From a virus, in the IMG/VR virus record IMGVR_UViG_3300005563_000030, positions 61,102-125,101 of that record: a stretch of 64,000 nucleotides of DNA. One strand, given 5' to 3'. The position numbers and the translations under genes were made by a program. How positions within the stretch are numbered: position 1 is the first letter of the stretch; each line of letters opens with the position of its first letter. The notes beneath the pieces are model-generated. The model saw nothing but the letters and a program-made list of their open reading frames with translations. It was not told where the DNA came from and made no database searches. This document shows positions 3,136 through 21,511 of this stretch, in pieces.

Positions 3136-5022
3136 TTAGTCTAAGTCTATCTCTACATCATTACCAACACTTTCAGCGTAAGTAACAAGAGCTTGTTGTA
3201 AAGCTCCACCAGAACCTTCTGGTACGTAGATAGCCCAATGATAAGAGTCAGTGTAAGTTTGTGACCATCCACCTACCTTATAAGAGAAGTCAAACTCAAT
3301 AGTAAACTGATCGTAGTAAGTTTGAGGGTTAGTTTGAAGAGCATAACCTTCAGCTTCACGTACAGCAGGATCTACTGATCTTTCTTCTAAGAAGTAGGAT
3401 AGAGATTTCTTTTCTTCATCACGAACACGAGCACCAACACCTTGAGGATATTTAACACTCTGTATTTCGCTTACTGGCCATCTATTCTCACAAGGACTAG
3501 CGTTGTAGTCAGCGTTGTATTCAGAAACTTGTAAGTGAATAGTATCAGCTTCATAAGGGAAATAGTCATAAGTACAATCTCCAGTGATACGATTTACAAA
3601 TGCTGTTTCGATTAACACACCAGCTTGGATATTTGTAGCAGGAGTTACTGCTGCTTCAACCCATTGAGCATTTCCAAAAGAAGGAATTGGTGCATAAACC
3701 AGTTCATCTACAGCACAATCTACAGCAGCAGGAGCAGAAAGGATTGTAGTAGTGTATTGGTGAATACAATCTACTGGACCATCAGCTTCTTGTGTAATTG
3801 TAAGATCAGGATAGTAAGCCTGTAATTCGGCAAGACGAGAAGTACCACAAACTGTATCTTGTAGAGTGATATGATATGTTTTAGGGAAAGCAAACAGATC
3901 ACCTACGTCAGACCATGCAGTAGTAGTTGGAGTAGTTAATACACAACGACCTTTAGCAGCACCTAAGAATTGAATACTATCATTAGCACCTATTGCAGCT
4001 TGGTTAGCAGTATTAGATATTAAGATGTAAGTTGATAAACCATTAGGAGCATCACGTAATACACGAGTTGTACTTTCACCAGCAGCAGAGATACCGTAGG
4101 CAGTGCTCACAGCGGTTAAGGCAGTACCATCACCTGCGTCAGCACGTACCAGTACGTAAATATAACCAGCAGCATTAGAAGTGTAACCAGCAGGACAAGT
4201 ACCGCAATCATTGATTACGAACAATCCGGCATTAGTGAAGTTAGCAGGAGCACCACCAGTTTTGATAATCTGATAAGTACTGATGATACCATCACGAGAA
4301 ATACGTGTTACACTTTGTCCAACATACTGTACTTGTACAGCAGCCAGAGAAGCATCGTCACCGTTGTCAGCGATAGCTAAGTTGTAAACGTTGTAAGTAG
4401 TAGCACCAGAAGTGTCCAGAGCTGAACTTAACACCTTACGAGCACGGAATAGTTGACCACCACCAGCGCTCCATTTAGGATCGTTGTTGATCTTCTCAAC
4501 CAGAATGTCAGCCAGAACTGAAGGATCTACGTCTGCACAAGAATCTCCACCACACTCATCGCAGCAACCTGTGTCGATACGATATTGACGGATGAAACCT
4601 TGATTGTTATAAAGTTTGTCAATTGGGTTACCTGTTGCTTTAACATACACTGTACGAACTTCACCGCAACGAGCAGATAAAGTTTTAGTTGTGTCAATAC
4701 CATCGAAACCTACAGCTACAACTTGGTTCTGACCACGAGAAGCTGATTTACGACGGATTTTCTTCAACAGTTTACCTTTAACCAACTTAGAAAGTTGATT
4801 AGTTTGTGGGATTCCAGCCATTAAAGGCAAGTGACTTACATCGGGCATCCCTTGACCGATGTAGAGTGCTTTGTTATTCGCATAAGTGGGAGCTGAAGTA
4901 GCTGCGTAGGTATTTCCATCGAAAATACCAACTTGGCCTACTGCGAGATCCACGGTTGTACCTGATGCGAGTAAGACAGGAGTGTTTGTTACAAACACGC
5001 GTCTAAACGATTGATTCTGCAT
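3136..5022 (-). CDS. Large virion protein (auxiliary capsid/decoration-like)
   Basis: 628 aa, A/T/G-rich, highly biased codons, three genes downstream of the MCP as in crAss-like gene order. Confidence 0.6.
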   Translation of the reverse strand: MQNQSFRRVFVTNTPVLLASGTTVDLAVGQVGIFDGNTYAATSAPTYANNKALYIGQGMPDVSHLPLMAGIPQTNQLSKLVKGKLLKKIRRKSASRGQNQVVAVGFDGIDTTKTLSARCGEVRTVYVKATGNPIDKLYNNQGFIRQYRIDTGCCDECGGDSCADVDPSVLADILVEKINNDPKWSAGGGQLFRARKVLSSALDTSGATTYNVYNLAIADNGDDASLAAVQVQYVGQSVTRISRDGIISTYQIIKTGGAPANFTNAGLFVINDCGTCPAGYTSNAAGYIYVLVRADAGDGTALTAVSTAYGISAAGESTTRVLRDAPNGLSTYILISNTANQAAIGANDSIQFLGAAKGRCVLTTPTTTAWSDVGDLFAFPKTYHITLQDTVCGTSRLAELQAYYPDLTITQEADGPVDCIHQYTTTILSAPAAVDCAVDELVYAPIPSFGNAQWVEAAVTPATNIQAGVLIETAFVNRITGDCTYDYFPYEADTIHLQVSEYNADYNASPCENRWPVSEIQSVKYPQGVGARVRDEEKKSLSYFLEERSVDPAVREAEGYALQTNPQTYYDQFTIEFDFSYKVGGWSQTYTDSYHWAIYVPEGSGGALQQALVTYAESVGNDVEIDLD

Positions 5023-5045
5023 CTGTTGTTATTGTTTTAAAATTA

Positions 5046-5720
5046 TTATTTTTTTTCTGCTAATATACGATCTTGAGCGAGTTGAAATCCTTCAGGATTT
5101 TCATATCTTCTTATAACTTCTCTTACGCAACGGTTTAAGATTTCATCAACATAAGTATCTGAAAGATCAGGATTCTTATTAGAAGAAGGTGTACCATCGA
5201 GTTTGATATATCCTTCGATGTCAATATCACCTACTGCTCTATAGTAAGATGCGAATACCTTATCTATATTAAAATCTTTTTTGTATACAAAGAGCTTATT
5301 ATCAGACAAATCTACGATAGTTTCTTCAAAGTCTAAAGAGGGCTGAGTATTAGTGCTCTCTAATAGCATATTTTCATTCTTAGGCTTAAATGGAATATTC
5401 CTAATTATGATACTTGGGCAATTAGTGCTAGAGCAGTAAGAATAAGAACTTATATAGTTGAAGAAATTATCAGGTAGGGCGAAAACATCAAACTCTACGT
5501 CGCTATATAAACGTTCTAATTCTTTACGTTTAATTTGTACCTCTTGAAGATCTTGGACATTATCTGAAGATTGATATTTTTCTATCTTTTCTTTAAGCCA
5601 CGCATCCTTCTGTTCACGATATAGAAGTACAAATTCACCTTTGTTAATATCAACGTCGGTGTTTGTATCATTCTTATTTACCTTGAGCTGAAAAGATTTG
5701 AAAGCTTCAATAGATGTCAT
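5046..5720 (-). CDS. Putative head-tail connector (ring) protein
   Basis: 224 aa; FALPDNFFNYI and PDLSDTYVDEILNRCV resemble crAss-like ring proteins; conserved position. Confidence 0.55.
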   Translation of the reverse strand: MTSIEAFKSFQLKVNKNDTNTDVDINKGEFVLLYREQKDAWLKEKIEKYQSSDNVQDLQEVQIKRKELERLYSDVEFDVFALPDNFFNYISSYSYCSSTNCPSIIIRNIPFKPKNENMLLESTNTQPSLDFEETIVDLSDNKLFVYKKDFNIDKVFASYYRAVGDIDIEGYIKLDGTPSSNKNPDLSDTYVDEILNRCVREVIRRYENPEGFQLAQDRILAEKK

Positions 5721-5731
5721 TCTTTATTATT

Positions 5732-6619
5732 TTATCCGAACATACGCTTCTCTTCCAGTTCTTCCTTAATAGAAGCGAATTCGTTGGCATTTTCTGGAGA
5801 ACTTAAGAACTTGATTACGTCCTTCATATTCTTACCATAAGTAGCATTACCACGTTGGTAATAGTTATCTCTAATACGGATTACGTGTTTAGCTACAGCT
5901 TCATCAATGATTAATTTGTATTGCAGTTCTTCAATTGTCTTAGAAGTCGCTTCATTGAATCTACGTAGAATAGTACCTTCCTTATCATTAGTAAGACTTT
6001 CTCTGAGTATATTATAAATGGCGTCAGCACTCATTGAGTCTTTCACCTTGGTACCATGGACATATTTACCAATTACTACCAGTTTATTTTTATTCTCAGC
6101 CATGTTGTACAATGCTGCAATAGCCTTGTCACGTTCCTTACTCTTAATCGCTTTTGAGCCTTCTTCTGTTTCAGATCTGTGAACATAGAACTTAGTATTA
6201 GCAAGATCAGGATTATTACGTGCATCCAGTTCAGGAGCAGCATAATCGTTAGCTAATAAAACGTAGTACTTTATACGATCTGTAGCAAGGTCAAAATTAA
6301 GACCAAGTTTATCTATAATCTTTATGTAGTATGTGTCCCAGTACTTGGAAGTAGCAGAAAGGTCTAAGTTTGTCAGACGTTCCAACTCTTGTCTAAGTTC
6401 AAGAATTTCTTCTTTACGTTCAGCACGTAATACTGGATCATTAATACGATTTACTGAGAGAGCATTTTCATCAAGACCTGTAACCCATCTACCATCAGGG
6501 GTACGACCGGGTTGCATGATTTCAAATGTAGTAGGAAATTTACTCCTATTATATTTATCCAATCCTATTGATTGGGCGCTTTGGTCAGGAGTTTGTTTCA
6601 CTTCAATTAATGTACTCAT
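5732..6619 (-). CDS. Conserved crAss-like protein downstream of MCP
   Basis: 295 aa, GRWVTGLDE..YW motif, position directly after capsid gene. Confidence 0.55.
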   Translation of the reverse strand: MSTLIEVKQTPDQSAQSIGLDKYNRSKFPTTFEIMQPGRTPDGRWVTGLDENALSVNRINDPVLRAERKEEILELRQELERLTNLDLSATSKYWDTYYIKIIDKLGLNFDLATDRIKYYVLLANDYAAPELDARNNPDLANTKFYVHRSETEEGSKAIKSKERDKAIAALYNMAENKNKLVVIGKYVHGTKVKDSMSADAIYNILRESLTNDKEGTILRRFNEATSKTIEELQYKLIIDEAVAKHVIRIRDNYYQRGNATYGKNMKDVIKFLSSPENANEFASIKEELEEKRMFG

Positions 6620-12498: not shown

Positions 12499-14586
12499 TT
12501 ACATTCTTGTTCCTAATGTGCGCATAGCATGTTGACTAGCTGCAAAAGGACTAGTTGATTTAGCAAATCCTGACATTGTCATAGCAAACGGAGAACTTAA
12601 GATTGGATTCTTTCTTTGATTGTCAGGTTTCTCAGGTTCTTTAATATTTATTATCGGATAATATTTATCAAGATGTCTAGCATAAGCCAGAGCGTGGCGG
12701 AAAGCCACAATGCGGTCGTAGTTACCTTCTTCAGGGTTGTATTTTATAATTTCTTGAAGTAATACAGGATCAAGAATACGAGTTACACCTAATTTATATA
12801 TAGGTTCTCTTGTATCAGGGTGTGTACCCACTTGAATCTGTTCTTTACAATACTCAATCATTAGCGACATACAGTAGTTAATGTTTGGTAGTGTTGGAGA
12901 TAATCCATATATTTTACCACCTTGGTTAGCTCTGGTGTTTGGATTAATCTCTTTTGCAATGTTAAATCCTTGACCTAACATGTGTCCTTTATTCTTACGC
13001 TCAAAGTATTGAATAAATGTACCCGCAGCGTTCTCTGGAAAGCAGACGGCATTATAATATTCTAGTAGCATTTCTACTTGTTCATGCCAATCATTCATTG
13101 AGTTTGGACGTGAAGCTAGCGCAGCAACAGGCATGTCTTGATAGGTTTCTCCAGCCACATCTGTCATACGTTTCCATAGAACAACTGTACCTAAAGAGTC
13201 TGACCAGTCGGAAATGTCATTGTTGTAAGGGTCAGCTCCCGCAATATACAAACCTCGTGGTGCATTTGAGATAGGCTCTTCCCATATAACCACTGGACAA
13301 TCTTTTCCGAGATTCCCTTTGGTTGGAAATTCACTGATGGGTCTGTCATGAGATACTGCATAACTAGTTCTAACTTTTCCAGCCGAATCTCTGAAGAATC
13401 TAACATATCTACCTGTAATATTATTTGCGTTTAAATAATCTAAGTGACTTCTAGCTGCTTCTATTGGGAATGGATTAATTGCATTAGATAAGAAACATTC
13501 TGCTGGAGTAAGTGGATAATACATTATCAACTTTTGGTACTCCACTTTATCAGGGTCTTTAGATTTCTCTTCGCGTTCTTTTAGAATGAGAGCCTTAGCT
13601 TTCTCCTTATCAGAAACCATCATAGGGATCTGATCTAAGTTAGGAGTAGCCCAGTCTATCTTCCCTTCTTTTCTGAGATAATCACCAAGTGTAGTGAGAT
13701 ATTTACAGTCAATACGATATAATCCTGACATGAAAATAGCTGTCTCTCGTCCTGTCTCAGGATCAGTTACAGCTAATAAGTTGTTTGCACTAGGATTAAA
13801 GAAGAAACGTTCAGCATCAGCTCCTTTATCAAAGCTACCACCGGTTCCGAAAAGAAGAGGTACACATCTCCATCCGAACTTGGACTTAAATGCTGGTTTA
13901 GCAGCTTCAAATGATTGAGCAAAAGCAAATTTACCAACTTCATCGGTAGCATAGGCTTTCGCAGTAACACCCGCTGGACCTTCTGTTTTGTTACCTTCTG
14001 ATACGTTACGAACAATTAAGTAAGACCAAACATGGTCATCACCACCTTTAGCTTTGAACCCTAAGCGGGTCATGTTCTTCTTAGTATCTTTATCTAGCTT
14101 TGGAATTTGTAATCCTTTCCAAAGATTCTTAATACCAAAATCAATCTTATCACGGATAAGTTGTAAGTCATCATCATTACCACCCACCACTACATTCTGT
14201 GTGTGTTCAAAGAGTTCAGCATGATAGCCCATATAAGAAGCCATAATCTCACTCTTTCCAAACTGACGCACTCCAATGTGCATATATCCTTTCTTCTCAA
14301 CACGACATTGTTCAAGATATTGACCTACTTCCCACTCATTATCTCTACAGGAAGCGAGCATTTTCTTTCTCTGTATATTACCATACTCATCCTCAACGTC
14401 ATCACGAATATTCCAATGGTTTAAATGCCAATAGAGCCACCCCGATATATCTACATTATCGAGAGTGACTCCACCCATACACTTGTCTATTTCCCATTGA
14501 ACTAGTTCTTCAAATTCAGGAGTACCTTCTACCGGAAGACTTTCCATCCTTGAAAAGAAGTCATTAATAGAATTAATCTTCAGCAT
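12499..14586 (-). CDS. terL: Terminase large subunit
   Basis: 695 aa; Walker A-like RQFGKS, Walker B DEVGK, GTGG, nuclease YIAGADPY and NYDRIVA motifs. Confidence 0.9.
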   Translation of the reverse strand: MLKINSINDFFSRMESLPVEGTPEFEELVQWEIDKCMGGVTLDNVDISGWLYWHLNHWNIRDDVEDEYGNIQRKKMLASCRDNEWEVGQYLEQCRVEKKGYMHIGVRQFGKSEIMASYMGYHAELFEHTQNVVVGGNDDDLQLIRDKIDFGIKNLWKGLQIPKLDKDTKKNMTRLGFKAKGGDDHVWSYLIVRNVSEGNKTEGPAGVTAKAYATDEVGKFAFAQSFEAAKPAFKSKFGWRCVPLLFGTGGSFDKGADAERFFFNPSANNLLAVTDPETGRETAIFMSGLYRIDCKYLTTLGDYLRKEGKIDWATPNLDQIPMMVSDKEKAKALILKEREEKSKDPDKVEYQKLIMYYPLTPAECFLSNAINPFPIEAARSHLDYLNANNITGRYVRFFRDSAGKVRTSYAVSHDRPISEFPTKGNLGKDCPVVIWEEPISNAPRGLYIAGADPYNNDISDWSDSLGTVVLWKRMTDVAGETYQDMPVAALASRPNSMNDWHEQVEMLLEYYNAVCFPENAAGTFIQYFERKNKGHMLGQGFNIAKEINPNTRANQGGKIYGLSPTLPNINYCMSLMIEYCKEQIQVGTHPDTREPIYKLGVTRILDPVLLQEIIKYNPEEGNYDRIVAFRHALAYARHLDKYYPIINIKEPEKPDNQRKNPILSSPFAMTMSGFAKSTSPFAASQHAMRTLGTRM

Positions 14587-14899
14587 TATTTCTCATTCTA
14601 TGAGGCACATCTCCACCACCACGTACTTCTTTTATGGCAGCAGCTTCTTTCTCACGAAGTTTTTCTACTACCTCGCACATAGCAAGGTATTCCTTCATGG
14701 TTTCACGTAGTGATTTTTGAATAGCCTCTTTAGTTTGTACTACAGCGTAATAAGCTCCACCATTTTTAGTTTTCATTAATTCCTTACGATCCTCTACTTC
14801 ATTGTAGGGGTTATCTAGTAAGTATTGTTTCCAGCGAGCTAATTGTTCTTCTGCAAGTTCTAGCTCTGCTGATATGTATAAGTTTTTCTTAACAGCCAT
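14573..14899 (-). CDS. Possible terminase small subunit
   Basis: 108 aa helical protein ending ...EVRGGG, overlapping terL start. Confidence 0.4.
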   Translation of the reverse strand: MAVKKNLYISAELELAEEQLARWKQYLLDNPYNEVEDRKELMKTKNGGAYYAVVQTKEAIQKSLRETMKEYLAMCEVVEKLREKEAAAIKEVRGGGDVPHRMRNNAED

Positions 14900-15215
14900 A
14901 TGGTTTTACTTCAGTTACGCGATAATATTTAGTATTAAATTTCCTTACTTTGACTATTTTTCCATTATAGTAGTAGTCTTCTACCCAGTTTTTATTTTTC
15001 ACAAAAAGTGGATCTGGTTGTTTTGGGAAGATTTGATAGTCTGTATTGATTTCATCTTTTTCAATTTCCATATCTTCTATATCTGAATAGAAGGAAGGAT
15101 CTTCAAGACGCATATCGTATTCGATAGCAAACTTCCCAATAGCCATCATAAACCCAGCATAGATAAAGTCATTATCCGTATAACTAGGTTTACACATTTC
15201 ATGTATCTCTTCCAT
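14889..15215 (-). CDS. Hypothetical protein
   Basis: 108 aa ORF. Confidence 0.55.
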   Translation of the reverse strand: MEEIHEMCKPSYTDNDFIYAGFMMAIGKFAIEYDMRLEDPSFYSDIEDMEIEKDEINTDYQIFPKQPDPLFVKNKNWVEDYYYNGKIVKVRKFNTKYYRVTEVKPYGC

Positions 15216-15228
15216 TGGTTTTTATTTG

Positions 15229-15300
15229 AGCACATAGGAAGAATCGAACTTCCGCATAACTGTTTTGCAGACAGCGACCTTACCACTTGGCTATACGTGC
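15229..15300 (-). tRNA. tRNA-Cys(GCA)
   Basis: GCACGTA/TATGTGC acceptor, loop CT-GCA-AA, GTTCGATTC T-loop, U73. Confidence 0.9.
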
Positions 15301-15659
15301 TTATTTACGAATAGCTTTTTCTTAATAACATAATCGAATATCTTCTCATTTATAAATCCTGATAAGAAGGCTCTAGCTTCTCCATCATTTACATCCTTAT
15401 CTTCTAATATGTAATCTACTAAATGAGAAATTTCATGAGTTATTATATTTACATTTAAACTCTCTTCTGAAAAGAAGACATAGTAGGTATGAAAATTATT
15501 TGGATTTATAGCCATTCCATGAAGATCATGGTCATCTTCTATATTAAATTCCCATTTCTCTCGCTTACTATATGAGTTTATCTTCTTACGAATGTCTTTG
15601 TCTATTATGACAATACACTTAAGTTGATAAACTTCTATCGGAATCACTAGTCTGAGCAT
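15291..15659 (-). CDS. Small HExxH metallopeptidase-like protein
   Basis: 122 aa with ITHEISH...EARAF. Confidence 0.55.
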   Translation of the reverse strand: MLRLVIPIEVYQLKCIVIIDKDIRKKINSYSKREKWEFNIEDDHDLHGMAINPNNFHTYYVFFSEESLNVNIITHEISHLVDYILEDKDVNDGEARAFLSGFINEKIFDYVIKKKLFVNKHV

Positions 15660-15826
15660 CTTCTGATAAGTCTAAGATCATGAATTTATAACTTTCCAAA
15701 GGATACTTTGATTCTTCTTTAGGTTCACCAAATATAGCCTTTCTTGATTCAGGACTCATAAGTTCATAGAATAACCCCATAATTGCAGCCTGATCGTATA
15801 TCTCTTCTTCCATGTAATTAGTTAAG

Positions 15827-15900
15827 TTGCGGGAGCGGGGATCGAACCCGCGTCATTTAGCTTATGAGACTAAGCTGGAACCTCTCCAGTCCACCCCGCA
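15827..15900 (-). tRNA. tRNA-Met(CAT), initiator-like acceptor stem
   Basis: TGCGGGG/TCCCGCA acceptor, loop CT-CAT-AA, GTTCGATCC T-loop; lacks the three G-C anticodon-stem pairs of canonical fMet. Confidence 0.85.
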
Positions 15901-16432
15901 ATTTTTAATCTTCTAAATATTCTCTCCAAGTCTTCGGTTTGTATCTATCTATTGCTTCATCATTACGTTTCTTGAACTCCTCAGCAGAAATAATACCTAG
16001 CCGAAATCCCCATTCAACATTAGTGAGATACATATCTCTCATTAACATCTTCTCTTTGTTCTTTATGTGTGCTTGGGTCATCATAAAGAGTATATCGTAC
16101 TCCACTTTCTTTTCCAATTTCTTCTTGTAACATCATTTCTAAGAACCTCATTGCGTCATTGTACCTCGCAGTGAGTTGTTCAATAATATAATTCTCAGAC
16201 ATACCTAAAGCTCTCCAATTATCAATTTCGTCTTGTAGGTAGTGGTTAACAATATTATTCATCTTCCTTAATATTATCTACTAACTCGTTCTCTAATTCA
16301 TCGCGATATTTCTCAAACTTCCTCAAAAGCTCTGTATCACTCCAGCCGTAACATCCTGTTTGTGGGCGAAGAATATGTACCATATGTTGCGCAATGGTAT
16401 ACTGAGGAAACAATTCCACGATCTCTGCAAAG

Positions 16433-16888
16433 TTATGGAATATCTGTGACTTTGTCTGAATCTGTTTGTTGCTCATTTTCTTGGTTTTTAAATGCGAACC
16501 ATTTAGGTTCCAGTGTTATATTGTTTTTTGTGTTGTACTCTTTTACGTTTGGTTTTGCACATCCGCATTCTGTTCCCGGATTGCAACATGATAATCCACA
16601 ATCTGATGATAATGATGATGTTTTTCTATTAATTGAACATCCACACATAACGCAATGCTCATCAATTCTGTTTGTTATATACCCATCACTAACTGCATTC
16701 GAGCTGCTGAACGGGCACGTCGAGCATATCAGTCTTCTCCTCACTATCTCCTGTTGTTCTTCCTCTGGTAACATCCCCAACTCGTTCTTCACTTGTGTTA
16801 TTGTCGCTTCCAAGATTGCTGGTGCGTTGCTCACTATTGTCGGCAGCAACGTCACGTACTCTACTAATCCTTTTAGTGTAATTTTCAT
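16433..16888 (-). CDS. Cys-rich (zinc-binding) hypothetical protein
   Basis: RRLICSTCP...HCVMCGC...KW motif. Confidence 0.65.
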   Translation of the reverse strand: MKITLKGLVEYVTLLPTIVSNAPAILEATITQVKNELGMLPEEEQQEIVRRRLICSTCPFSSSNAVSDGYITNRIDEHCVMCGCSINRKTSSLSSDCGLSCCNPGTECGCAKPNVKEYNTKNNITLEPKWFAFKNQENEQQTDSDKVTDIP

Positions 16889-17222
16889 AGAACTGTTTAG
16901 CTAATATATTTCTTTGTTTAAGAGCTTTTCTTAGCTTATCATAGTTTAATTCCAGAAGCAATTCAGTTGTTGATTGCTTATATCTGGTAGATTTTCGGAT
17001 ATTCCTTATCTTTCTAATAAGAGTAATAATCATCTGGTCTACTTTACGCTTAGAAACTGTTATAGTTCCAATATGCTTAATAGAAACAGATGTATAGTCC
17101 ATAGATGATAGAGCAGCTCTCACGCCAACCTTCCAGAAAAAAGCATTTACATCTTCTACAAGGTCAGGATCAAGGTTATTCTCTCTAGCTACCAACTTAG
17201 AAACTATATGAATATCCTTCAT
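16689..17222 (-). CDS. Possible HU/IHF-like DNA-binding protein
   Basis: Basic protein with VSIKHIGTITV strand motif; position upstream of terminase as in crAss-like phages. Confidence 0.4.
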   Translation of the reverse strand: MKDIHIVSKLVARENNLDPDLVEDVNAFFWKVGVRAALSSMDYTSVSIKHIGTITVSKRKVDQMIITLIRKIRNIRKSTRYKQSTTELLLELNYDKLRKALKQRNILAKQFYENYTKRISRVRDVAADNSEQRTSNLGSDNNTSEERVGDVTRGRTTGDSEEKTDMLDVPVQQLECS

Positions 17223-17563
17223 TAATTATTATCAATTTTAATAAGAACTCCCATAGTTGGAGTAAGCCCAAAGTCTAACTCTTTTCTAAGTGAGTATTCT
17301 TTACTGTCTACATTTCTAATCAGCATTCCAAATTTCTTCAACTTAGATAGAGTATTTTTAAGACTATCATCAGACTTTAGTATACCTGCATTTAGTATAA
17401 GGTCTTTAGTTTTTCTATTGATCTTATAAACCATAAAATATGCAAGTACTGTTAACTCTGTGTCTGAGAGCTTAACATTCATAAGTAAACAGAAGATATT
17501 AATTAATACCTTAGCTTGTTCTACTTTACTATTGGTTTTCTTTTTTATCTTTACTAGTTGCAT
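17222..17563 (-). CDS. Hypothetical protein (possible winged-helix DNA binder)
   Basis: Likely ATG start at 17563 just after promoter 17572-17603; LSDTELTVL...NTLSKLKKFGML. Confidence 0.55.
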   Translation of the reverse strand: MQLVKIKKKTNSKVEQAKVLINIFCLLMNVKLSDTELTVLAYFMVYKINRKTKDLILNAGILKSDDSLKNTLSKLKKFGMLIRNVDSKEYSLRKELDFGLTPTMGVLIKIDNN

Positions 17564-17571
17564 ATTCAGTA

Positions 17572-17603
17572 CAAATATAGAGATATTATTGCAATTTACC
17601 AAA
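17572..17603 (-). promoter_or_regulatory. Bacteroidota primary-sigma promoter
   Basis: TTTG-N20-TATATTTG. Confidence 0.75.
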
Positions 17604-17774
17604 TTTATTTTATCTCCATCCCTTCTTCTCCAGAACTTTCTATTAGCTGCTCTCGCGAACAACGAATAGTAGGTGAGTCACTGAGCGTTACACTTCTGCT
17701 GCTCCGCGAAGTACGAAGCTACGAAAAATTTCTGACATTTTCATCAATTTCGTAAACTATTTTTTAAAATAAAT

Positions 17775-17797
17775 AAAAAAGCCCCAATTAAGGGGCT
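17775..17797 (-). terminator. Intrinsic terminator closing the tRNA array
   Basis: AGCCCC-TTAATT-GGGGCTTTTTT immediately after tRNA-Trp. Confidence 0.8.
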
Positions 17798-17801
17798 ATT
17801 G

Positions 17802-17873
17802 CACGGGATGATGGTCTCGAACCACCGACACAGGTTTTGGAGACTAGCATTTTACCAACTAAACTAATCCCGT
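17802..17873 (-). tRNA. tRNA-Trp(CCA)
   Basis: ACGGGAT/ATCCCGT acceptor, loop CT-CCA-AA, GTTCGAGAC. Confidence 0.88.
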
Positions 17874-17874
17874 A

Positions 17875-17970
17875 GGTAGCCTGCGTAATAAGATACTTTT
17901 CGCGTAGTCCCAGGTTTACGCTTGAAGGGTCAGGTAAATCCCACATATCTCCTATACTATTCTCAGGCTC
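17875..17970 (-). ncRNA. Unclassified structured RNA inside tRNA operon
   Basis: AGCCTG/CAGGCT closing stem, AGATAT/GTATCT, GTGG/CTAC, TTTAC/GTAAA; ends ...CAGGCT-ACC. Confidence 0.45.
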
Positions 17971-18041
17971 TGGGTGAAGTGCAGGATCGAACTGCTTCTC
18001 CAGCTTCACATGCTAGCGCTTTTCCAGTAAGCTATCTTCAC
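17971..18041 (-). tRNA. tRNA-His(GTG)
   Basis: CTAGC-AT-GTG-AA-GCTGG anticodon arm, GTTCGATCC, ends CTTCACCCA; acceptor/T junction slightly irregular. Confidence 0.85.
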
Positions 18042-18043
18042 AG

Positions 18044-18114
18044 ATGCTCGTGATCGAATCGGACGACCTTCTCCGAGGTCAAAACTCGGTGTGATACCAA
18101 TATACCAACGAGCA
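18044..18114 (-). tRNA. tRNA-Gln(TTG)
   Basis: TGCTCGT/ACGAGCA acceptor, CCGAG-TT-TTG-AC-CTCGG, variant T-loop GTCCGATTC. Confidence 0.85.
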
Positions 18115-18122
18115 TTATATAG

Positions 18123-18195
18123 TGGGGTTCTCTGGTTACGATCCAGATCCTCCAGTTTTTCAGACTGGTGCTTCTACCAAGTTAGCTTGAACTCC
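18123..18195 (-). tRNA. tRNA-Phe(GAA)
   Basis: CCAGT-CT-GAA-AA-ACTGG, variant T-loop GATCGTAAC. Confidence 0.88.
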
Positions 18196-18200
18196 AAATG

Positions 18201-18274
18201 AGCCTGTGGTCGGAGTTGAACCGACAACCTTTCCCTTACAAGGGGACTGCTCCGCCAATTGAGCTACAGCAGGC
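18201..18274 (-). tRNA. tRNA-Thr(TGT)
   Basis: Loop CT-TGT-AA, GTTCAACTC; one bulged base in acceptor stem. Confidence 0.88.
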
Positions 18275-18280
18275 ATTGTG

Positions 18281-18375
18281 CTAATGGGGTACGACTTGAA
18301 CGACAAGCGGAGGTTAATCCCTGATTCCGCGCCGGATAGACAATCCGGTATGTCTGCCAATTTCACCACCCATTA
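18281..18375 (-). tRNA. Atypical tRNA with Asp anticodon (GTC) and long variable arm
   Basis: TAATGGG/CCCATTA-G acceptor, Leu-like D-arm TGGTGAAATTGGCAGACA, CCGGA-TT-GTC-TA-TCCGG, about 26-nt variable arm, GTTCAAGTC T-loop. Confidence 0.7.
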
Positions 18376-18380
18376 GTGTG

Positions 18381-18452
18381 CGGGAACGGAAGGGGTCGAA
18401 CCTTCAACCTACCGGTTAACAGCCGGTTGCTCTACCATTGAGCTACATTCCC
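18381..18452 (-). tRNA. tRNA-Asn(GTT)
   Basis: ACCGG-CT-GTT-AA-CCGGT, canonical D and T arms. Confidence 0.93.
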
Positions 18453-18504
18453 TGGTCGGCTCCGATTTTTTATACAGAACGTTGCCGAAGTAAACTGTTG
18501 ATCG

Positions 18505-18580
18505 CCGACTATCACGGATTTGAACCGAGGATCTCCTCTTAGACAGAGAGGCAGGGACGACCAGACTCCCCTAATAGTCG
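18505..18580 (-). tRNA. tRNA-Asp(GTC)
   Basis: CGACTAT/ATAGTCG-G acceptor, CCTCT-CT-GTC-TA-AGAGG, GTTCAAATC. Confidence 0.88.
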
Positions 18581-18621
18581 AGGTGAAGGTTCCTTCCTGG
18601 AGTATACCTACAACTATGCAG

Positions 18622-18696
18622 TCAGGGTAGCTGGATTTGAACCAGCGAACACGTGCTTCCAAGGCACGCCCATATAGCCATCTGTGGAACACCCTG
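18622..18696 (-). tRNA. tRNA-Pro(TGG)
   Basis: CAGGGTG/TACCCTG-A acceptor, CGTGC-CT-TGG-AA-GCACG. Confidence 0.88.
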
Positions 18697-18701
18697 ATAA
18701 T

Positions 18702-18727
18702 AAAAAACCCCCGGTGAAAACCGAGGG
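18702..18727 (-). terminator. Attenuator terminator of tRNA operon A
   Basis: CCCTCGG-TTTTCA-CCGGGGG-TTTTTT, 5 nt upstream of tRNA-Pro. Confidence 0.85.
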
Positions 18728-18757
18728 AAACTTTCAATTATGACAAATTTTCTTGAA

Positions 18758-18844
18758 TTACTTATTTTGGCATAATGTTCCCTCATCGAGATCTTGTTGA
18801 TCCGGTGTGAAATTATTAAACGTATTATGCCAATTGTTAATCAT
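18758..18844 (-). CDS. Attenuator leader peptide A (MINNWHNTFNNFTPDQQDLDEGTLCQNK)
   Basis: 28-aa ORF between promoter and terminator; codons 3-18 encode only N,W,H,T,F,P,D,Q, the amino acids of the downstream tRNAs. Confidence 0.85.
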   Translation of the reverse strand: MINNWHNTFNNFTPDQQDLDEGTLCQNK

Positions 18845-18848
18845 AAAA

Positions 18849-18880
18849 CAAAGATAAGTAAAATATTTGAAACTACCAAA
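18849..18880 (-). promoter_or_regulatory. Promoter of tRNA operon A
   Basis: TTTG-N20-TATCTTTG, 4 nt before leader ATG. Confidence 0.8.
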
Positions 18881-18895
18881 TATTCTTAAAAGAAG

Positions 18896-18979
18896 TCGAT
18901 GCAGAGAGATTTGAACTCCCATAGCCGAATGGCGACAGTTTTACAGACTGCTGATTTCAACCCACTTACCATTACATCG
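18896..18979 (-). tRNA. tRNA-Tyr(GTA), C1-G72
   Basis: CGATGTA/TGCATCG-A acceptor, loop CT-GTA-AA, long variable arm GCCATTCGGC. Confidence 0.85.
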
Positions 18980-19048
18980 AGATAGCTGTCTATTCCAGCT
19001 TGTCAAACCCTTTTTATTTCATACTACGTCGCCGAGATACACGACCTG

Positions 19049-19137
19049 CGGAAAGAAGAGGAACCGACCCCCACCCGATTTAACGAGACCTAGTTTTCAA
19101 GACTAGTCGGCGCTCCAATGCACCTGCTTTTCTTTCC
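19049..19137 (-). tRNA. tRNA-Ser(TGA)
   Basis: GGAAAGA/TCTTTCC-G acceptor, loop CT-TGA-AA, long variable arm, variant T-loop GGTCGGTTC. Confidence 0.82.
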
Positions 19138-19141
19138 AGAG

Positions 19142-19227
19142 CGGAGAACAGTGGCCCTGATCCACATACGTTCGATGACGTACCACCTCTTTAGCAGAGA
19201 GGGCATACCCTAGTATGTCTATTCTCC
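19142..19227 (-). tRNA. tRNA-Ser(GCT)
   Basis: GGAGAAT/GTTCTCC-G acceptor, CCTCT-CT-GCT-AA-AGAGG, long variable arm, highly variant T-loop GATCAGGGC. Confidence 0.78.
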
Positions 19228-19232
19228 AAATG

Positions 19233-19306
19233 TACTCCTAGTCAGATTTGAACTGACACTTGACAGATTTTAAGTCTGTTGACTCTCCCTGTTGGTCTAT
19301 AGGAGC
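19233..19306 (-). tRNA. tRNA-Leu(TAA), short variable loop
   Basis: ACAGA-CT-TAA-AA-TCTGT, GTTCAAATC, A73. Confidence 0.88.
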
Positions 19307-19382
19307 TGGTAGCTACGGTGAGATTTGAACTCACACTAAATAGTTTCTAAGACTATTGCCTCTCCCATTGGGCTACGTAGCC
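19307..19382 (-). tRNA. tRNA-Leu(TAG), short variable loop, encoded CCA
   Basis: ATAGT-CT-TAG-AA-ACTAT, GTTCAAATC, ends ACCA. Confidence 0.9.
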
Positions 19383-19389
19383 ATAAAAT

Positions 19390-19420
19390 AAAAAACCCCC
19401 ACTTATGAATAAGCAGGGGG
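19390..19420 (-). terminator. Attenuator terminator of tRNA operon B
   Basis: CCCCCTGCTTA-TTCA-TAAGTGGGGG-TTTTTT just upstream of tRNA-Leu(TAG). Confidence 0.85.
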
Positions 19421-19446
19421 TAAACTAAAAACGGAAAAAAGTATCT

Positions 19447-19530
19447 TTATATTCCGACAATAAGCCCCCCTGCCACAGGATAACTGAGACTAGATAAATA
19501 GGAGAGTAAATATTGCTTCACGAATTTCAT
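19447..19530 (-). CDS. Attenuator leader peptide B (MKFVKQYLLSYLSSLSYPVAGGLIVGI)
   Basis: 27-aa ORF; codons 7-17 encode only Y,L,S, the amino acids of the downstream tRNAs. Confidence 0.85.
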   Translation of the reverse strand: MKFVKQYLLSYLSSLSYPVAGGLIVGI

Positions 19531-19534
19531 AACA

Positions 19535-19566
19535 CGAAGATAGGAAAACTTTTTCAATTTTCCAAA
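19535..19566 (-). promoter_or_regulatory. Promoter of tRNA operon B
   Basis: TTTG-N20-TATCTTCG, 4 nt before leader ATG. Confidence 0.75.
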
Positions 19567-19700
19567 TTTTCATTTATTGAATAAGTACGATCACATAAAT
19601 CGCAGTAATAAACTGGTCCTAGATTTTCTCCGAACACTCCAATCTCATCTATAATTATGAATTGTTCATTACATTCAGGACATCTGTTTTCTGATTTCAT
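19554..19700 (-). CDS. Small zinc-ribbon protein (48 aa)
   Basis: MKSENRCPEC...YYCDLCDRTY; two CxxC motifs; ATG right after tRNA-Ala. Confidence 0.6.
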   Translation of the reverse strand: MKSENRCPECNEQFIIIDEIGVFGENLGPVYYCDLCDRTYSINENLEN

Positions 19701-19702
19701 AG

Positions 19703-19772
19703 TGGACACAGTGGGAATCGAACCCAAAAGTTCTCCTTGCAAGGGAGACTGCCTACCGTTGGCATCTGGCCC
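19703..19772 (-). tRNA. tRNA-Ala(TGC)
   Basis: TCTCC-CT-TGC-AA-GGAGA, G3.U70, GTTCGATTC. Confidence 0.85.
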
Positions 19773-19777
19773 AGAAG

Positions 19778-19850
19778 TAGGAAGTCTGAGAATCGAACTC
19801 AGGAGTCCACTTTGTAAGAGTGGCATATTAAACCTCTGTATGAACTTCCT
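19778..19850 (-). tRNA. tRNA-Val(TAC)
   Basis: AGGAAGT/ACTTCCT-A acceptor, CCACT-CT-TAC-AA-AGTGG. Confidence 0.87.
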
Positions 19851-19853
19851 ATG

Positions 19854-19926
19854 TCGCTGAGGGAAGAGTCGAACTTCCAGTCTTACACGTATCAGGCGTC
19901 TGCGTTAACCATTACGCTACTCAGCG
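19854..19926 (-). tRNA. tRNA-Ile(GAT)
   Basis: CGCTGAG/CTCAGCG-A acceptor, loop CT-GAT-AC. Confidence 0.87.
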
Positions 19927-19928
19927 GG

Positions 19929-20000
19929 TTGGCTCTAAGGGGGTTGAACCCTTATCCTTCTCGTTATGAGCGAGCTGCTCCACCTTTGAGCTAAGAGCCG
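19929..20000 (-). tRNA. tRNA with CAT anticodon, probably Ile2 (lysidine) rather than Met
   Basis: CTCG-CT-CAT-AA-CGAG; sits next to Ile(GAT); the operon leader has an ATA codon and no internal ATG. Confidence 0.75.
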
Positions 20001-20005
20001 ATATG

Positions 20006-20077
20006 TACTCTCGAAGGGTTTCGATCCCTCTTCTACACCTTGAAAGGGTGTCATCCTAGCCACTAGACGACGAGAGC
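20006..20077 (-). tRNA. tRNA-Glu(TTC)
   Basis: ACACC-CT-TTC-AA-GGTGT, Glu-type D-arm TCGTCTAGTGGCTAGGA, T-loop GATCGAAAC. Confidence 0.88.
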
Positions 20078-20126
20078 TGGTGTACAGACTATCACTGACC
20101 TTGGTAACTGACTTTCACAGATTTTG

Positions 20127-20197
20127 TGCGCTACTGGGGAGTCGAACCCCACCCCTCTGATTGGAAGTCAGATAGACTACCGAAATCCTTGTAACGC
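20127..20197 (-). tRNA. tRNA-Gly(TCC)
   Basis: GCG start, TCTGA-CT-TCC-AA-TCAGA, GTTCGACTC. Confidence 0.87.
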
Positions 20198-20204
20198 ATA
20201 TAAG

Positions 20205-20277
20205 AAGAGCTGGAGGGATTCAAACCCCCGACGTTCTGTTTAGAAAACAGACATTCTGTTCCCTGAATTACAGCTCT
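20205..20277 (-). tRNA. tRNA-Arg(TCT)
   Basis: AGAGCTG/CAGCTCT acceptor, TCTGT-TT-TCT-AA-ACAGA. Confidence 0.85.
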
Positions 20278-20278
20278 G

Positions 20279-20352
20279 AGGACTAGGAGCGAGTCGAACG
20301 CTCATGTTCCCGCTTCGTAGGCGGGAGCTCTATCCAGTTAAGCTACCAGTCC
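20279..20352 (-). tRNA. tRNA-Arg(ACG)
   Basis: CCCGC-CT-ACG-AA-GCGGG, canonical D and T arms. Confidence 0.92.
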
Positions 20353-20361
20353 TTATTTATG

Positions 20362-20432
20362 TACCCCCGCACGGTAACGATCCGTGTTCTACTGGTTAAA
20401 AGCCAGTAGCTTCACCTTAAAGCTTCGAGGGT
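20362..20432 (-). tRNA. tRNA-Lys(TTT)
   Basis: ACTGG-CT-TTT-AA-CCAGT, variant T-loop GATCGTTAC. Confidence 0.87.
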
Positions 20433-20434
20433 AT

Positions 20435-20474
20435 AAAAACCAAAACCCCCAAGCTTCTTTAAGGCTCAGGGGTT
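20435..20474 (-). terminator. Attenuator terminator of tRNA operon C
   Basis: AACCCCTGAGC-CTTAAAGAA-GCTTGGGGGTT-TTGGTTTTT immediately upstream of tRNA-Lys. Confidence 0.8.
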
Positions 20475-20503
20475 CGATGTTATGACACACATTAATTAAG
20501 TCA

Positions 20504-20581
20504 TTAGCAAATAGAACCACCTGAGCCACATTTGACAATGCGCTCTGCTCCTCTACCCGCTATAATGACTAATAAACTCAT
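20504..20581 (-). CDS. Attenuator leader peptide C (MSLLVIIAGRGAERIVKCGSGGSIC)
   Basis: 25-aa ORF; codons 5-17 encode only V,I,A,G,R,E,K, the amino acids of the downstream tRNAs. Confidence 0.85.
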   Translation of the reverse strand: MSLLVIIAGRGAERIVKCGSGGSIC

Positions 20582-20598
20582 TTCTTTAAATTATAATA

Positions 20599-20630
20599 CA
20601 AATATACGAAAACTTTTTTACAATTCCAAA
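20599..20630 (-). promoter_or_regulatory. Promoter of tRNA operon C
   Basis: TTTG-N20-TATATTTG, 17 nt before leader ATG. Confidence 0.8.
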
Positions 20631-21016
20631 TCTTCTTCATCACCTTCTATACTTTCGTCTTCAGGAATGTCATCTTCATAATCCAAAGGTGTGCAATCCA
20701 TAATCTGTACACCCATTTGTTCCATATACAATTCCATGAAATCTGAGAAACCTGCTTTTACTATTAAAGAACTCTCAGCCTTTCTGAAATGAATTGTGAC
20801 ATGATCCTTTTCTTTAGCTCTATTAAAGTGATGAATATCTTTTAAATCAAATACTACAGGACCATATTCATGCACAATATCCATCATAATCATGCTATCT
20901 TCTGGACCTTCATCTCCATTAATGAGACGGTTTAATTCTGCTTCTTCCCGGTTAGCTTGACTATTACGAGGAGCAAGCTCCGACCATCTCGCTAACATTT
21001 TTACAATTGTACTCAT
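20618..21016 (-). CDS. Hypothetical acidic protein
   Basis: 132 aa ORF. Confidence 0.65.
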   Translation of the reverse strand: MSTIVKMLARWSELAPRNSQANREEAELNRLINGDEGPEDSMIMMDIVHEYGPVVFDLKDIHHFNRAKEKDHVTIHFRKAESSLIVKAGFSDFMELYMEQMGVQIMDCTPLDYEDDIPEDESIEGDEEDLEL

Positions 21017-21276
21017 TTTTCTAAGTTTAATATTTTTGAAAGATCACCATCTGTTTTCTCTATAATCTCAATTAATGTATTAATATTTGATGAAGAAATA
21101 GGCTCTTTCTTTCCATTAAAGTAATCGAGGTAATCCTCTCTAGTAAACGCACACCATTTATGGGTGTATATATTATAGTGGAATAACCACTTATAAAGGT
21201 TTGTATTATTCATATTTTGCTTATTCATATGATATTCAAGTAGTTCTAAAGACTTTCTATAAATATTGTAATTCAT
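21013..21276 (-). CDS. Hypothetical protein
   Basis: WLFHYNIYTHKWCAFTR-containing ORF; start placed after promoter 21280-21311. Confidence 0.55.
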   Translation of the reverse strand: MNYNIYRKSLELLEYHMNKQNMNNTNLYKWLFHYNIYTHKWCAFTREDYLDYFNGKKEPISSSNINTLIEIIEKTDGDLSKILNLEK

Positions 21277-21279
21277 ATA

Positions 21280-21311
21280 CAAATGTACACAGAATAGTTG
21301 AAAACTCCAAA
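21280..21311 (-). promoter_or_regulatory. Bacteroidota-type promoter
   Basis: TTTG-N20-TACATTTG. Confidence 0.7.
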
Positions 21312-21511
21312 TAAAAAAGGAAGTATTTCTACTTCCTACTGTACTATTAATAAATACATATCTTTTACACACTGTTCAGTGAGGGTGAATGGGTGGCAAT
21401 CCCCCACTCTAGTAAGTCTAAATAGCTTTCTCTCTTTGTCATAATCCTGTATTAGATAGTGTGTGTAATTGTCATCAATTACTACATCATTAATTCCTGC
21501 CTTTAGTTCAT

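Follow-up and report, generated by a model that had tools for sequence, protein, structure and literature searches.

How does a phage adjust the expression of a large set of transfer RNA (tRNA) genes to the tRNA species that it needs? This question is raised by a stretch of 64,000 nucleotides (nt) of the virus record IMGVR_UViG_3300005563_000030, here called the window, which comprises positions 61102-125101 of a 125,101-bp phage genome on a single contig. On its minus strand a short open reading frame (ORF) and a hairpin precede tRNA genes for Leu, Leu, Ser, Ser and Tyr; this arrangement is termed unit B. The ORF contains a run of exactly those codons which the downstream tRNAs serve, and the 5' arm of the hairpin has two mutually exclusive pairing partners. 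We consider it likely that unit B is a ribosome-mediated (leader-peptide) attenuator: where ribosomes are slow at the codons of its own operon, transcription would proceed into the phage tRNA genes. The features of unit B, in the order of transcription, are as follows.

19535-19566, minus strand: promoter-like site, read from the sequence; TTTG at 19566-19563, 20 nt, then TATCTTCG at 19542-19535.
19447-19530, minus strand: leader ORF MKFVKQYLLSYLSSLSYPVAGGLIVGI, 27 codons followed by TAA (19449-19447); from the ORF list and the sequence.
19480-19512, minus strand: sensor run YLLSYLSSLSY, 11 codons (leader codons 7-17), in frame in the leader ORF.
19500-19506, minus strand: segment 1, CTCTCCT (codons CTC TCC), which by folding can pair with the G-run of segment 2.
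19465-19475, minus strand: segment 2, TGGCAGGGGGG, with the core GCAGGGGG at 19473-19466 (ORF codons 19-22); predicted 5' half of the antiterminator, from duplex energy and folding.
19413-19420, minus strand: segment 3, CCCCCTGC, 5' arm of the terminator; its partner is either segment 2 or segment 4, from the terminator call and folding.
19390-19419, minus strand: intrinsic terminator, hairpin CCCCTGCTTATTCATAAGTGGGGG at 19419-19396 (10 pairs, 5 G-C) and T-run at 19395-19390 (T6); from a terminator scan.
19307-19382, minus strand: tRNA-Leu(UAG), 76 nt, short variable loop; found by ARAGORN and Rfam.
19232-19306, minus strand: tRNA-Leu(UAA), 75 nt, short variable loop; found by ARAGORN and Rfam.
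19141-19227, minus strand: tRNA-Ser(GCU), 87 nt, long variable arm; found by ARAGORN.
19048-19133, minus strand: tRNA-Ser(UGA), 86 nt, long variable arm; found by ARAGORN at a lowered threshold (-ps85) only.
18895-18979, minus strand: tRNA-Tyr(GUA), 85 nt, long variable arm, final gene of unit B; found by ARAGORN and Rfam.

The run of codons TAT TTA CTC TCC TAT TTA TCT AGT CTC AGT TAT, to which the original prediction had drawn attention, was located at 19512-19480 in frame in the leader ORF. As that prediction had stated, both Leu and both Ser codon boxes are sampled. TTR, CTN, TCN and AGY occur twice each and Tyr codons three times; all five anticodons of the operon are addressed at least two times. 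The first eight codons of the run already represent all five tRNA species of unit B. Across the six frames of the 125,101-bp genome no longer run of Leu, Ser and Tyr codons was present. CTC and TCC are both rare codons, making up 7.7% of the Leu and 4.6% of the Ser codons in the genome's long ORFs, and the pair CTC TCC was retained in four of the five folded B-type leaders (the window and its relatives L001, L003 and L004). Compared with L001 all three substitutions in codons 1-21 of the leader are synonymous; in codons 22-27 three non-synonymous changes and one synonymous change were found.

The second element of the earlier claim, a perfect complementarity between GCAGGGGG (19473-19466) and CCCCCTGC (19420-19413), the latter being the 5' arm of the terminator, held as well. 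The overall anatomy was as expected for attenuation, with a leader ORF, an antiterminator that shares sequence with the terminator 5' arm, and tRNA genes which start 7 nt past the T-run, a gap too short for another promoter. The spacer between the leader stop codon and the terminator hairpin measures 26 nt; the next promoter and leader follow after tRNA-Tyr(GUA). The duplex of segments 2 and 3 had an energy of -20.4 kcal/mol, and none of 300 shuffled sequences paired as strongly (z -5.4). The terminator hairpin by itself amounted to -13.0 to -14.3 kcal/mol. Pairing of GCAGGGGG with CCCCCUGC and formation of the hairpin are mutually exclusive, and segment 2 is positioned where a ribosome finishing the leader covers it. 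When folding was constrained by a ribosome placed on the early or middle part of the run, the antiterminator resulted; a ribosome placed over segment 2 gave the terminator fold. In the former case segment 2 paired with the 5' arm in all five folded B-type lineages before the 3' arm is made. Without a ribosome L001, L003, L004 and L005 folded into a helix of segments 1 and 2 (segment 1 being CUCUCC) plus the terminator. Relative to L001 the helix of segments 2 and 3 carries a compensatory change from G-C to A-U, GCAGGGGG/CCCCCTGC becoming GCAGGGGAG/CTCCCCTGC.

From these features we infer that the leader is translated and that the switch would operate as follows. A host-type promoter would start a nearly leaderless transcript, and a ribosome would translate the 27-codon leader, of which codons 7-17 are those read by the five downstream tRNAs. 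If any codon of the run were decoded slowly, the ribosome would wait in the run and cover segment 1, leaving segment 2 (GCAGGGGG) free. Segment 2 would then capture the terminator 5' arm (CCCCCUGC) once that is made, the terminator hairpin would not form and polymerase would enter the genes for Leu, Leu, Ser, Ser and Tyr. If decoding were fast, the ribosome would reach the stop codon and in doing so cover segment 2; segment 3 would then fold with segment 4 and transcription would end 7 nt before the first tRNA. A ribosome footprint extends about 12-13 nt 3' of the A site; on this basis the first eight codons of the run would be far enough upstream for a stalled ribosome to leave segment 2 free. 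The supply of the five tRNA species would thereby come under negative feedback that distinguishes isoacceptors. Because more tRNA cannot relieve a shortage of amino acids, the useful signal would be tRNA supply; this speaks for supply as what may be sensed and does not single out damage of tRNAs.

Are other tRNA genes of this phage organized in the same manner? The window contains three units of the same build, including unit B. The other two are as follows, both identified with the tRNA finders.

Unit with the run VIIAGRGAERIVK: ahead of Lys, Arg(ACG), Arg(UCU), Gly, Glu, CAU, Ile, Val and Ala.
Unit with the run NNWHNTFNNFTPDQQD (unit C): ahead of Pro, Asp, Asn, Asp, Thr, Phe, Gln, His and Trp.

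The tRNA-Ala of the former operon was detected solely by Rfam or at a lowered ARAGORN threshold; likewise, tRNA-Ser(UGA) of unit B at 19133-19048 was overlooked by default ARAGORN and by Rfam. Each of the three runs samples every anticodon of its operon. The longest run of leader codons readable by the own operon comprised 13 codons in the VIIAGRGAERIVK unit, 11 in unit B and 16 in the NNWHNTFNNFTPDQQD unit; the other operons could read 0-4.

We then compared units in related phages. Relatives were gathered via a 113-amino-acid ORF next to the array, via the terminase and from two GenBank phages. The survey comprised 32 units on 14 contigs with identical copies dropped, including the cultured Cellulophaga phage phi4:1 (L014, NC_021788.1) and phage Lbo-JY46 (L004, PP438436.1). 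Among 49 loci of the large terminase (TerL), 27 had any plus-strand tRNA call, and L139, L142, L154, L159, L160, L177, L179 and L181 were retained. Excluded were L143 (same as L142), L157 and L158 (same contigs as L006 and L005), L135 (array at the contig start without a leader region) and loci with one to three scattered tRNA calls. A metagenome scan with the 113-amino-acid family returned five loci; L008 alone was long and it is identical to L003 in unit B, and the short contigs L007 and L009-L011 without unit B were excluded. A megablast of the tRNA region against GenBank phages gave merely a 56-nt tRNA match in two records. With a 132-amino-acid ORF upstream of the array as anchor, 23 pattern-matching stretches and no relatives were obtained. 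A distant blastn search with unit B gave 172 records, all of them isolated tRNA matches and none covering 80% of the query. A scan of viral contigs for the promoter-plus-ATGA pattern yielded at least 119 loci; at none of the matches listed was a short ORF accompanied by a downstream tRNA gene at a distance of up to 200 nt. In the T5 tRNA region no codon-matched leader was found in a limited scan in which blocks were defined by gaps under 90 nt, T5 blocks being short; we count this among the weak points of the proposal. Rfam overlooked several tRNA genes with long arms. Lowering the ARAGORN threshold to 70% brought up Ser(GCU) in L179 as well as Ser(UGA) and Ser(GCU) in L142, and in L181 a homologous sequence was recognized by eye alone.

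We regard the comparative evidence across these units as the decisive support. An in-frame run with a start codon and with a stop ahead of the terminator was present in all 32. Leader codons 2-18 included the amino acid of an operon tRNA in 195 of 204 cases and an amino acid without an operon tRNA in 113 of 404 (odds ratio 56, without phylogenetic correction). Altogether 402 of 544 core residues (74%) matched the own operon. In multi-unit genomes the match was 367/493 to the own operon and 111/850 (13%) to other operons of the same genome, and in 11 of 11 such genomes the true leader-to-operon pairing was the best permutation. Many leaders had been chosen because they match, and picking was therefore repeated against wrong operons. 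When the best run over all upstream ORFs was taken, it measured 7-23 codons if scored against the tRNAs of its own operon (n = 29), whereas the tRNA sets of other operons gave 1-9 (n = 50) and a search of the reverse strand gave 0-7 (n = 32). Resolution at the level of isoacceptors, which had been suggested for unit B, was borne out: the split-box codon classes (TTR, CTN, TCN, AGY, TAY, AGR, CGN) occurred in the leader core in 73 of 73 cases when the tRNA was in the operon and in 25 of 151 when it was not, and at least two of these 25 are tRNAs overlooked by ARAGORN. Because of this difference the isoacceptor-level claim holds. The terminator, too, was present in all 32 units, with the hairpin ending 5-14 nt ahead of the first tRNA, and pairing of the leader 3' part with the terminator 5' arm surpassed shuffled sequences (p<=0.05) in 26 of 32 units despite differing stem sequences. 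In a MAFFT alignment of nine B-type leaders the terminator arms were out of register; therefore, duplex energies of each sequence against its shuffles were used instead.

The leader codons followed the tRNA content when this changed. In Lbo-JY46 the Asn, Asp and Cys tRNAs reside in the first operon and its leader INSIDIRNIDIVCAEGVNKC... has N, D and C; that operon carries Arg(UCU) as its only Arg tRNA and the leader uses only AGA for Arg. The leader TRQHTQFWFPT of the Lbo-JY46 Pro/Thr/Phe/Gln/His/Trp operon lacks N and D and carries CGT, matching an Arg(ACG) gene within the operon. In L177, L179 and L181 a Cys tRNA is added at the end of the last operon, and the run of its leader includes a Cys codon. 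In L142 Leu/Ser/Tyr is fused with Pro/Gln/His/Arg behind a single leader, LSLHSSRPYQQLSLL. In B-type leaders the composition was kept and the order was not: YLLSYLSSLSY, SYLLSLSYLSL, YYSLSLSLS, SYSLYSLSL, YYSLSLLSSL, LSYSSLYYLS, LLSYYSSSLLL and LSYSSLYLL. In phi4:1 the 23 tRNAs are partitioned quite differently, and three leaders match this partition.

Leader QRLHLQELEQP: ahead of Pro/Glu/Gln/His/Leu/Leu/Arg.
Leader TKTGITVIDKTKGARA: ahead of Ala/Lys/Ile/Gly/Met/Asp/Thr/Val/Arg/Met.
Leader YNNSNWSFSY: ahead of Tyr/Ser/Ser/Asn/Trp/Phe/Cys.

The start of these transcripts deserves comment. The unit B leader ATG at 19530 lies 4 nt past the TATCTTCG box. Because of this short distance the transcript is probably nearly leaderless. 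A scan for sigma-70 promoters gave no call at this site. A TAnn[T/A]T[T/C]G box with TTTG upstream is what we take to be the Bacteroidota promoter type. Such a box with TTTG 15-27 nt upstream was present in 24 of 32 units. In 13 of these 24 the gap between box and start codon is exactly 4 nt, which suggests leaderless or nearly leaderless transcripts; in the rest an A-rich stretch of 6-27 nt was found. The Lbo-JY46 record names a cyanobacterial host, yet its promoters look Bacteroidota-type.

Several observations count against attenuation as outlined. Three other runs of Leu, Ser and Tyr codons in the genome reach 10 codons; therefore, the run length alone is weak evidence. Under strict wobble merely two consecutive codons of the run are readable by the operon tRNAs. 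CTC, TCC and TCT require four-way reading by U34, and for this reason the unit B leader could partly report host tRNAs. The units of the survey are related by descent and the p-values carry no phylogenetic correction, and thus they overstate independence. The Leu/Ser leader of Lbo-JY46 (5391-5776) keeps two TAT and two AGT codons, and no Tyr or Ser(GCU) gene was found in PP438436.1. This absence is not certain because both tRNA finders overlooked long-arm tRNAs elsewhere; in L154, a relative of Lbo-JY46, both the Tyr and the Ser(GCU) gene are present. With respect to the switch, the full-length ribosome-free fold of window unit B was the antiterminator (-37.2 kcal/mol). Its basal state may therefore be 'on' according to this prediction, unlike that of L001, L003, L004 and L005. 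The helix of segments 1 and 2 (CUCUCCU:GGGGGG) was formed in the fold of the first 70 nt with an energy no better than that of shuffled sequences (z 0.39); it is present in the minimum free energy folds of four of five B-type lineages and absent from that of the window. Pairing of segments 2 and 3 was not significant in 6 of 32 units, among them the B-type units L003 (p 0.15), L159 (p 0.78) and L181 (p 0.07). Finally, stalls at the last three of the 11 run codons would cover segment 2 and favour termination.

How do other explanations fare with these data? The original prediction had taken the grouping of Leu, Ser and Tyr for a structural one, i.e. class II tRNAs with long variable arms. This part failed. 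The Leu tRNAs of the window, 76 and 75 nt long, have variable loops of 4-5 nt and thus class I shape; long arms are confined to both Ser tRNAs and Tyr. Linked with it is the idea that unit B is a sensor of tRNA damage, e.g. by an anticodon nuclease aimed at class II tRNAs, which we consider unlikely. Leu/Ser/Tyr stand behind one leader in 9 of 14 contigs (the window, L001, L003, L004 without Tyr, L005, L154, L159, L179 and L181), the Leu tRNAs of L003 (86 and 81 nt) do have long arms so that the grouping may be an ancestral class II block, and sensing at the isoacceptor level is what a nuclease-specific response would need. Against a class-directed sensor speak the short loops of the window Leu tRNAs and the grouping elsewhere: Leu is placed with Pro/Gln/His/Arg in phi4:1, L139 and L142, and phi4:1 has Ser and Tyr together with Asn/Trp/Phe/Cys. 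Moreover, in the window 17 class I tRNAs are placed behind the same device in the remaining two operons; therefore, the device is not class-specific. As to damage itself, the sequence does not separate it from dilution or a mismatch in codon usage. A quite improbable possibility is that the hairpins are constitutive leaky terminators or RNA-processing signals, with short ORFs that do not control read-through; the codon match would then serve otherwise or translation of the leader would merely protect the RNA. The six units without significant pairing of segments 2 and 3 would fit, as would unit C of the window, for which folding did not predict an antiterminator, and L005, which retains a C-type leader and terminator without a tRNA behind. 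Yet the pairing is located just past the run in 26 of 32 units with stems which differ in sequence. With no more than 5-14 nt between the hairpin and the first tRNA in each of the 32 units, the tRNAs can be reached by read-through only. For a codon match which tracks the relocation of tRNA genes, no use is evident other than a readout of decoding speed.

Readings of the ORF as a chance ORF, of the leader as a T-box-like RNA and of the ORF as a micro-protein gene were considered and rejected. A row of triplets complementary to the operon anticodons could in principle pair, and an untranslated leader RNA might then bind tRNAs directly like a T-box with many specifier triplets. We consider this very improbable. 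A scan of 14500-21500 at the Rfam gathering threshold gave 21 matches, all to the tRNA family and none to a T-box. Further, in all 32 units the run shares its frame with an upstream start codon and is closed by a stop ahead of the terminator, all three changes relative to L001 in codons 1-21 are synonymous and the start codon is 4 nt past the -7-like box in 13 of 24 units. Hardly credible is the proposal that the small ORFs specify functional micro-proteins whose likeness to the tRNA sets is incidental. Their position is conserved and some are annotated as hypothetical proteins, e.g. gp075 of phi4:1; however, composition is kept and residue order is not, the composition shifts when the tRNA content shifts, and the tails past the run vary freely. 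Thus attenuation by a translating ribosome remains the reading that we prefer for unit B. Beyond the single unit, we tentatively consider it possible that phages of Bacteroidota-type hosts survey the tRNA pool in this way. Each operon would be shut by its own attenuator and opened, at isoacceptor resolution, upon slow decoding of a cognate codon, and a complete minimal set would replace exactly the species that are lacking. In such a scheme the lack may originate from a codon mismatch, from host shut-off or from cleavage by a host anticodon nuclease; in the last case the system may be a sensor-coupled counter-defence.

How does unit B relate to known systems? Multivalent attenuators are familiar from enterobacteria, where the thr leader senses Thr and Ile, and the ilvGMEDA and ilvBN leaders Leu, Val and Ile. 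The likeness to unit B comprises a short, presumably translated leader with mixed regulatory codons, alternative 2:3 and 3:4 pairings with a possible 1:2 pairing, a terminator directly before the genes and stalling that would favour the antiterminator. Enterobacterial attenuators regulate biosynthetic enzymes, whereas unit B would regulate tRNAs. The phage units would sense codons of the operon's own products so that the loop would control tRNA supply. They sample each of 5-14 tRNA species mostly once to three times, in contrast to the long tandem repeats of the enterobacterial leaders. In addition they are phage-borne, with what we take to be a Bacteroidota-type promoter and a probably nearly leaderless start. 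Escherichia coli pheST with its pheM leader likewise applies leader-peptide attenuation to the translation machinery and responds to how cognate codons are decoded; however, it controls a synthetase, deals with one amino acid and is cellular. T-box riboswitches, too, monitor the state of one particular tRNA and decide thereby between terminator and antiterminator. They bind uncharged tRNA directly, are untranslated and have one specifier codon, whereas the phage unit would use a translating ribosome and is multivalent. Phage tRNA arrays such as those of T5 and T4 are regarded as compensation for codon usage or loss of host tRNAs; they share with the window a large phage-encoded tRNA set, which in the window looks like a complete minimal decoding set. 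We know of no decoding-based regulation described for such arrays. In Anabaena PCC 7120, according to the published reports, the trn operon is a silent tRNA array which is induced by translational stress (PMC8421152, PMC10272220). Accessory tRNA genes are thus turned on when translation is impaired, as would be the case in unit B; in Anabaena, promoter control is exerted by the repressor protein TrcR (PMC10272220). The main texts of both papers do not contain 'attenuat', 'leader peptide' or 'terminator'.

Full-text searches of the literature outside subscription journals and older T5 tRNA papers retrieved no account of leader-peptide or attenuator control of tRNA genes. To our knowledge leader-peptide attenuation has so far been known for genes of amino-acid biosynthesis, transport or aminoacylation by synthetases; the genes that unit B would regulate are five tRNAs. 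What unit B would add is attenuation of the classical type at tRNA genes, sensed through the codons that these tRNAs read. If the proposal is correct, a sensor made of own-product codons would act on decoding capacity as a direct homeostat. The regulation of large phage tRNA arrays would find an explanation, as would their division into blocks with small 'hypothetical' ORFs in between, and it would become apparent how a phage tells which tRNA species an infected cell lacks. For annotation the rule would be that a small ORF and a terminator ahead of a tRNA block denote a leader and not a protein gene. As tools, portable sensors that report tRNA supply codon by codon could be useful as well. Because three such units are present in a cultured phage, Cellulophaga phage phi4:1 is a ready test system.

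The annotation of phi4:1 (NC_021788.1) is of interest at 1790-1909, 3906-3997, 4201-4282 and 4654-4727. The hypothetical protein gp075 contains the leader of the second tRNA operon, and the coding sequence gp076 overlies an unannotated tRNA-Ser(UGA). Two tRNAs listed as 'pseudo' are, by their anticodon loops, Asn(GTT) with a long arm and Cys(GCA). Two further loci were peculiar. In L005 an orphan C-type leader (run FWHQQTTQP...) and a hairpin with a T-run are located at 4871-5050 with no tRNA behind; a second hairpin, a promoter and a coding sequence are next. This is probably the relic of a lost operon. At 5500-5570 of L139 a promoter-like site and an ORF with many Glu codons (QEQEIEGEE) lead straight into a single tRNA-Glu with no space for a terminator, which may be a different arrangement or a chance ORF.

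As to the surroundings of unit B, matches to PHROGs in the window comprised major head protein, portal, large terminase and DNA polymerase. For the terminase, Leptolyngbya phage Lbo-JY46 has the closest counterpart (45% identity), followed by the Cellulophaga phages phi4:1 and phi17:2 (31%) and crAss-like phages (23-27%). Upstream of unit B an ORF of 47 amino acids (19557-19700, minus strand) with two CxxC pairs (Zn-ribbon-like) starts directly after tRNA-Ala and ends inside the -33 region of the unit B promoter; it had no match in PHROGs, and in L001 no ORF was found at the same place.

The tRNA set at 15228-20432 (minus strand) resembles a complete minimal decoding set, with two CAU genes. 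U34 is present in seven of the eight four-codon boxes and ACG in the eighth (Arg); G34 or U34 is found in two-codon boxes. A minimal tRNA set of this kind would read four-codon boxes by four-way wobble of U34. Short Leu tRNAs of class I shape (73-76 nt) occur in the window (19232-19382), L001, L004 and L005; L003 differs. Similar short Leu tRNA pairs match Bacillus and Lactobacillus phages. At 18280-18375 (minus strand) a 96-nt tRNA with the Asp anticodon GTC and a long extra arm resides beside a normal 77-nt tRNA-Asp. Lastly, at 15826-15900 (minus strand) ARAGORN reported a 'tRNA-???' with a 2-nt anticodon; on visual inspection the loop is CTCATAA above a 5-bp stem (TTAGT/GCTAA), so that the gene reads as tRNA-Met(CAT), and relatives carry a tRNA-Met at the equivalent position.

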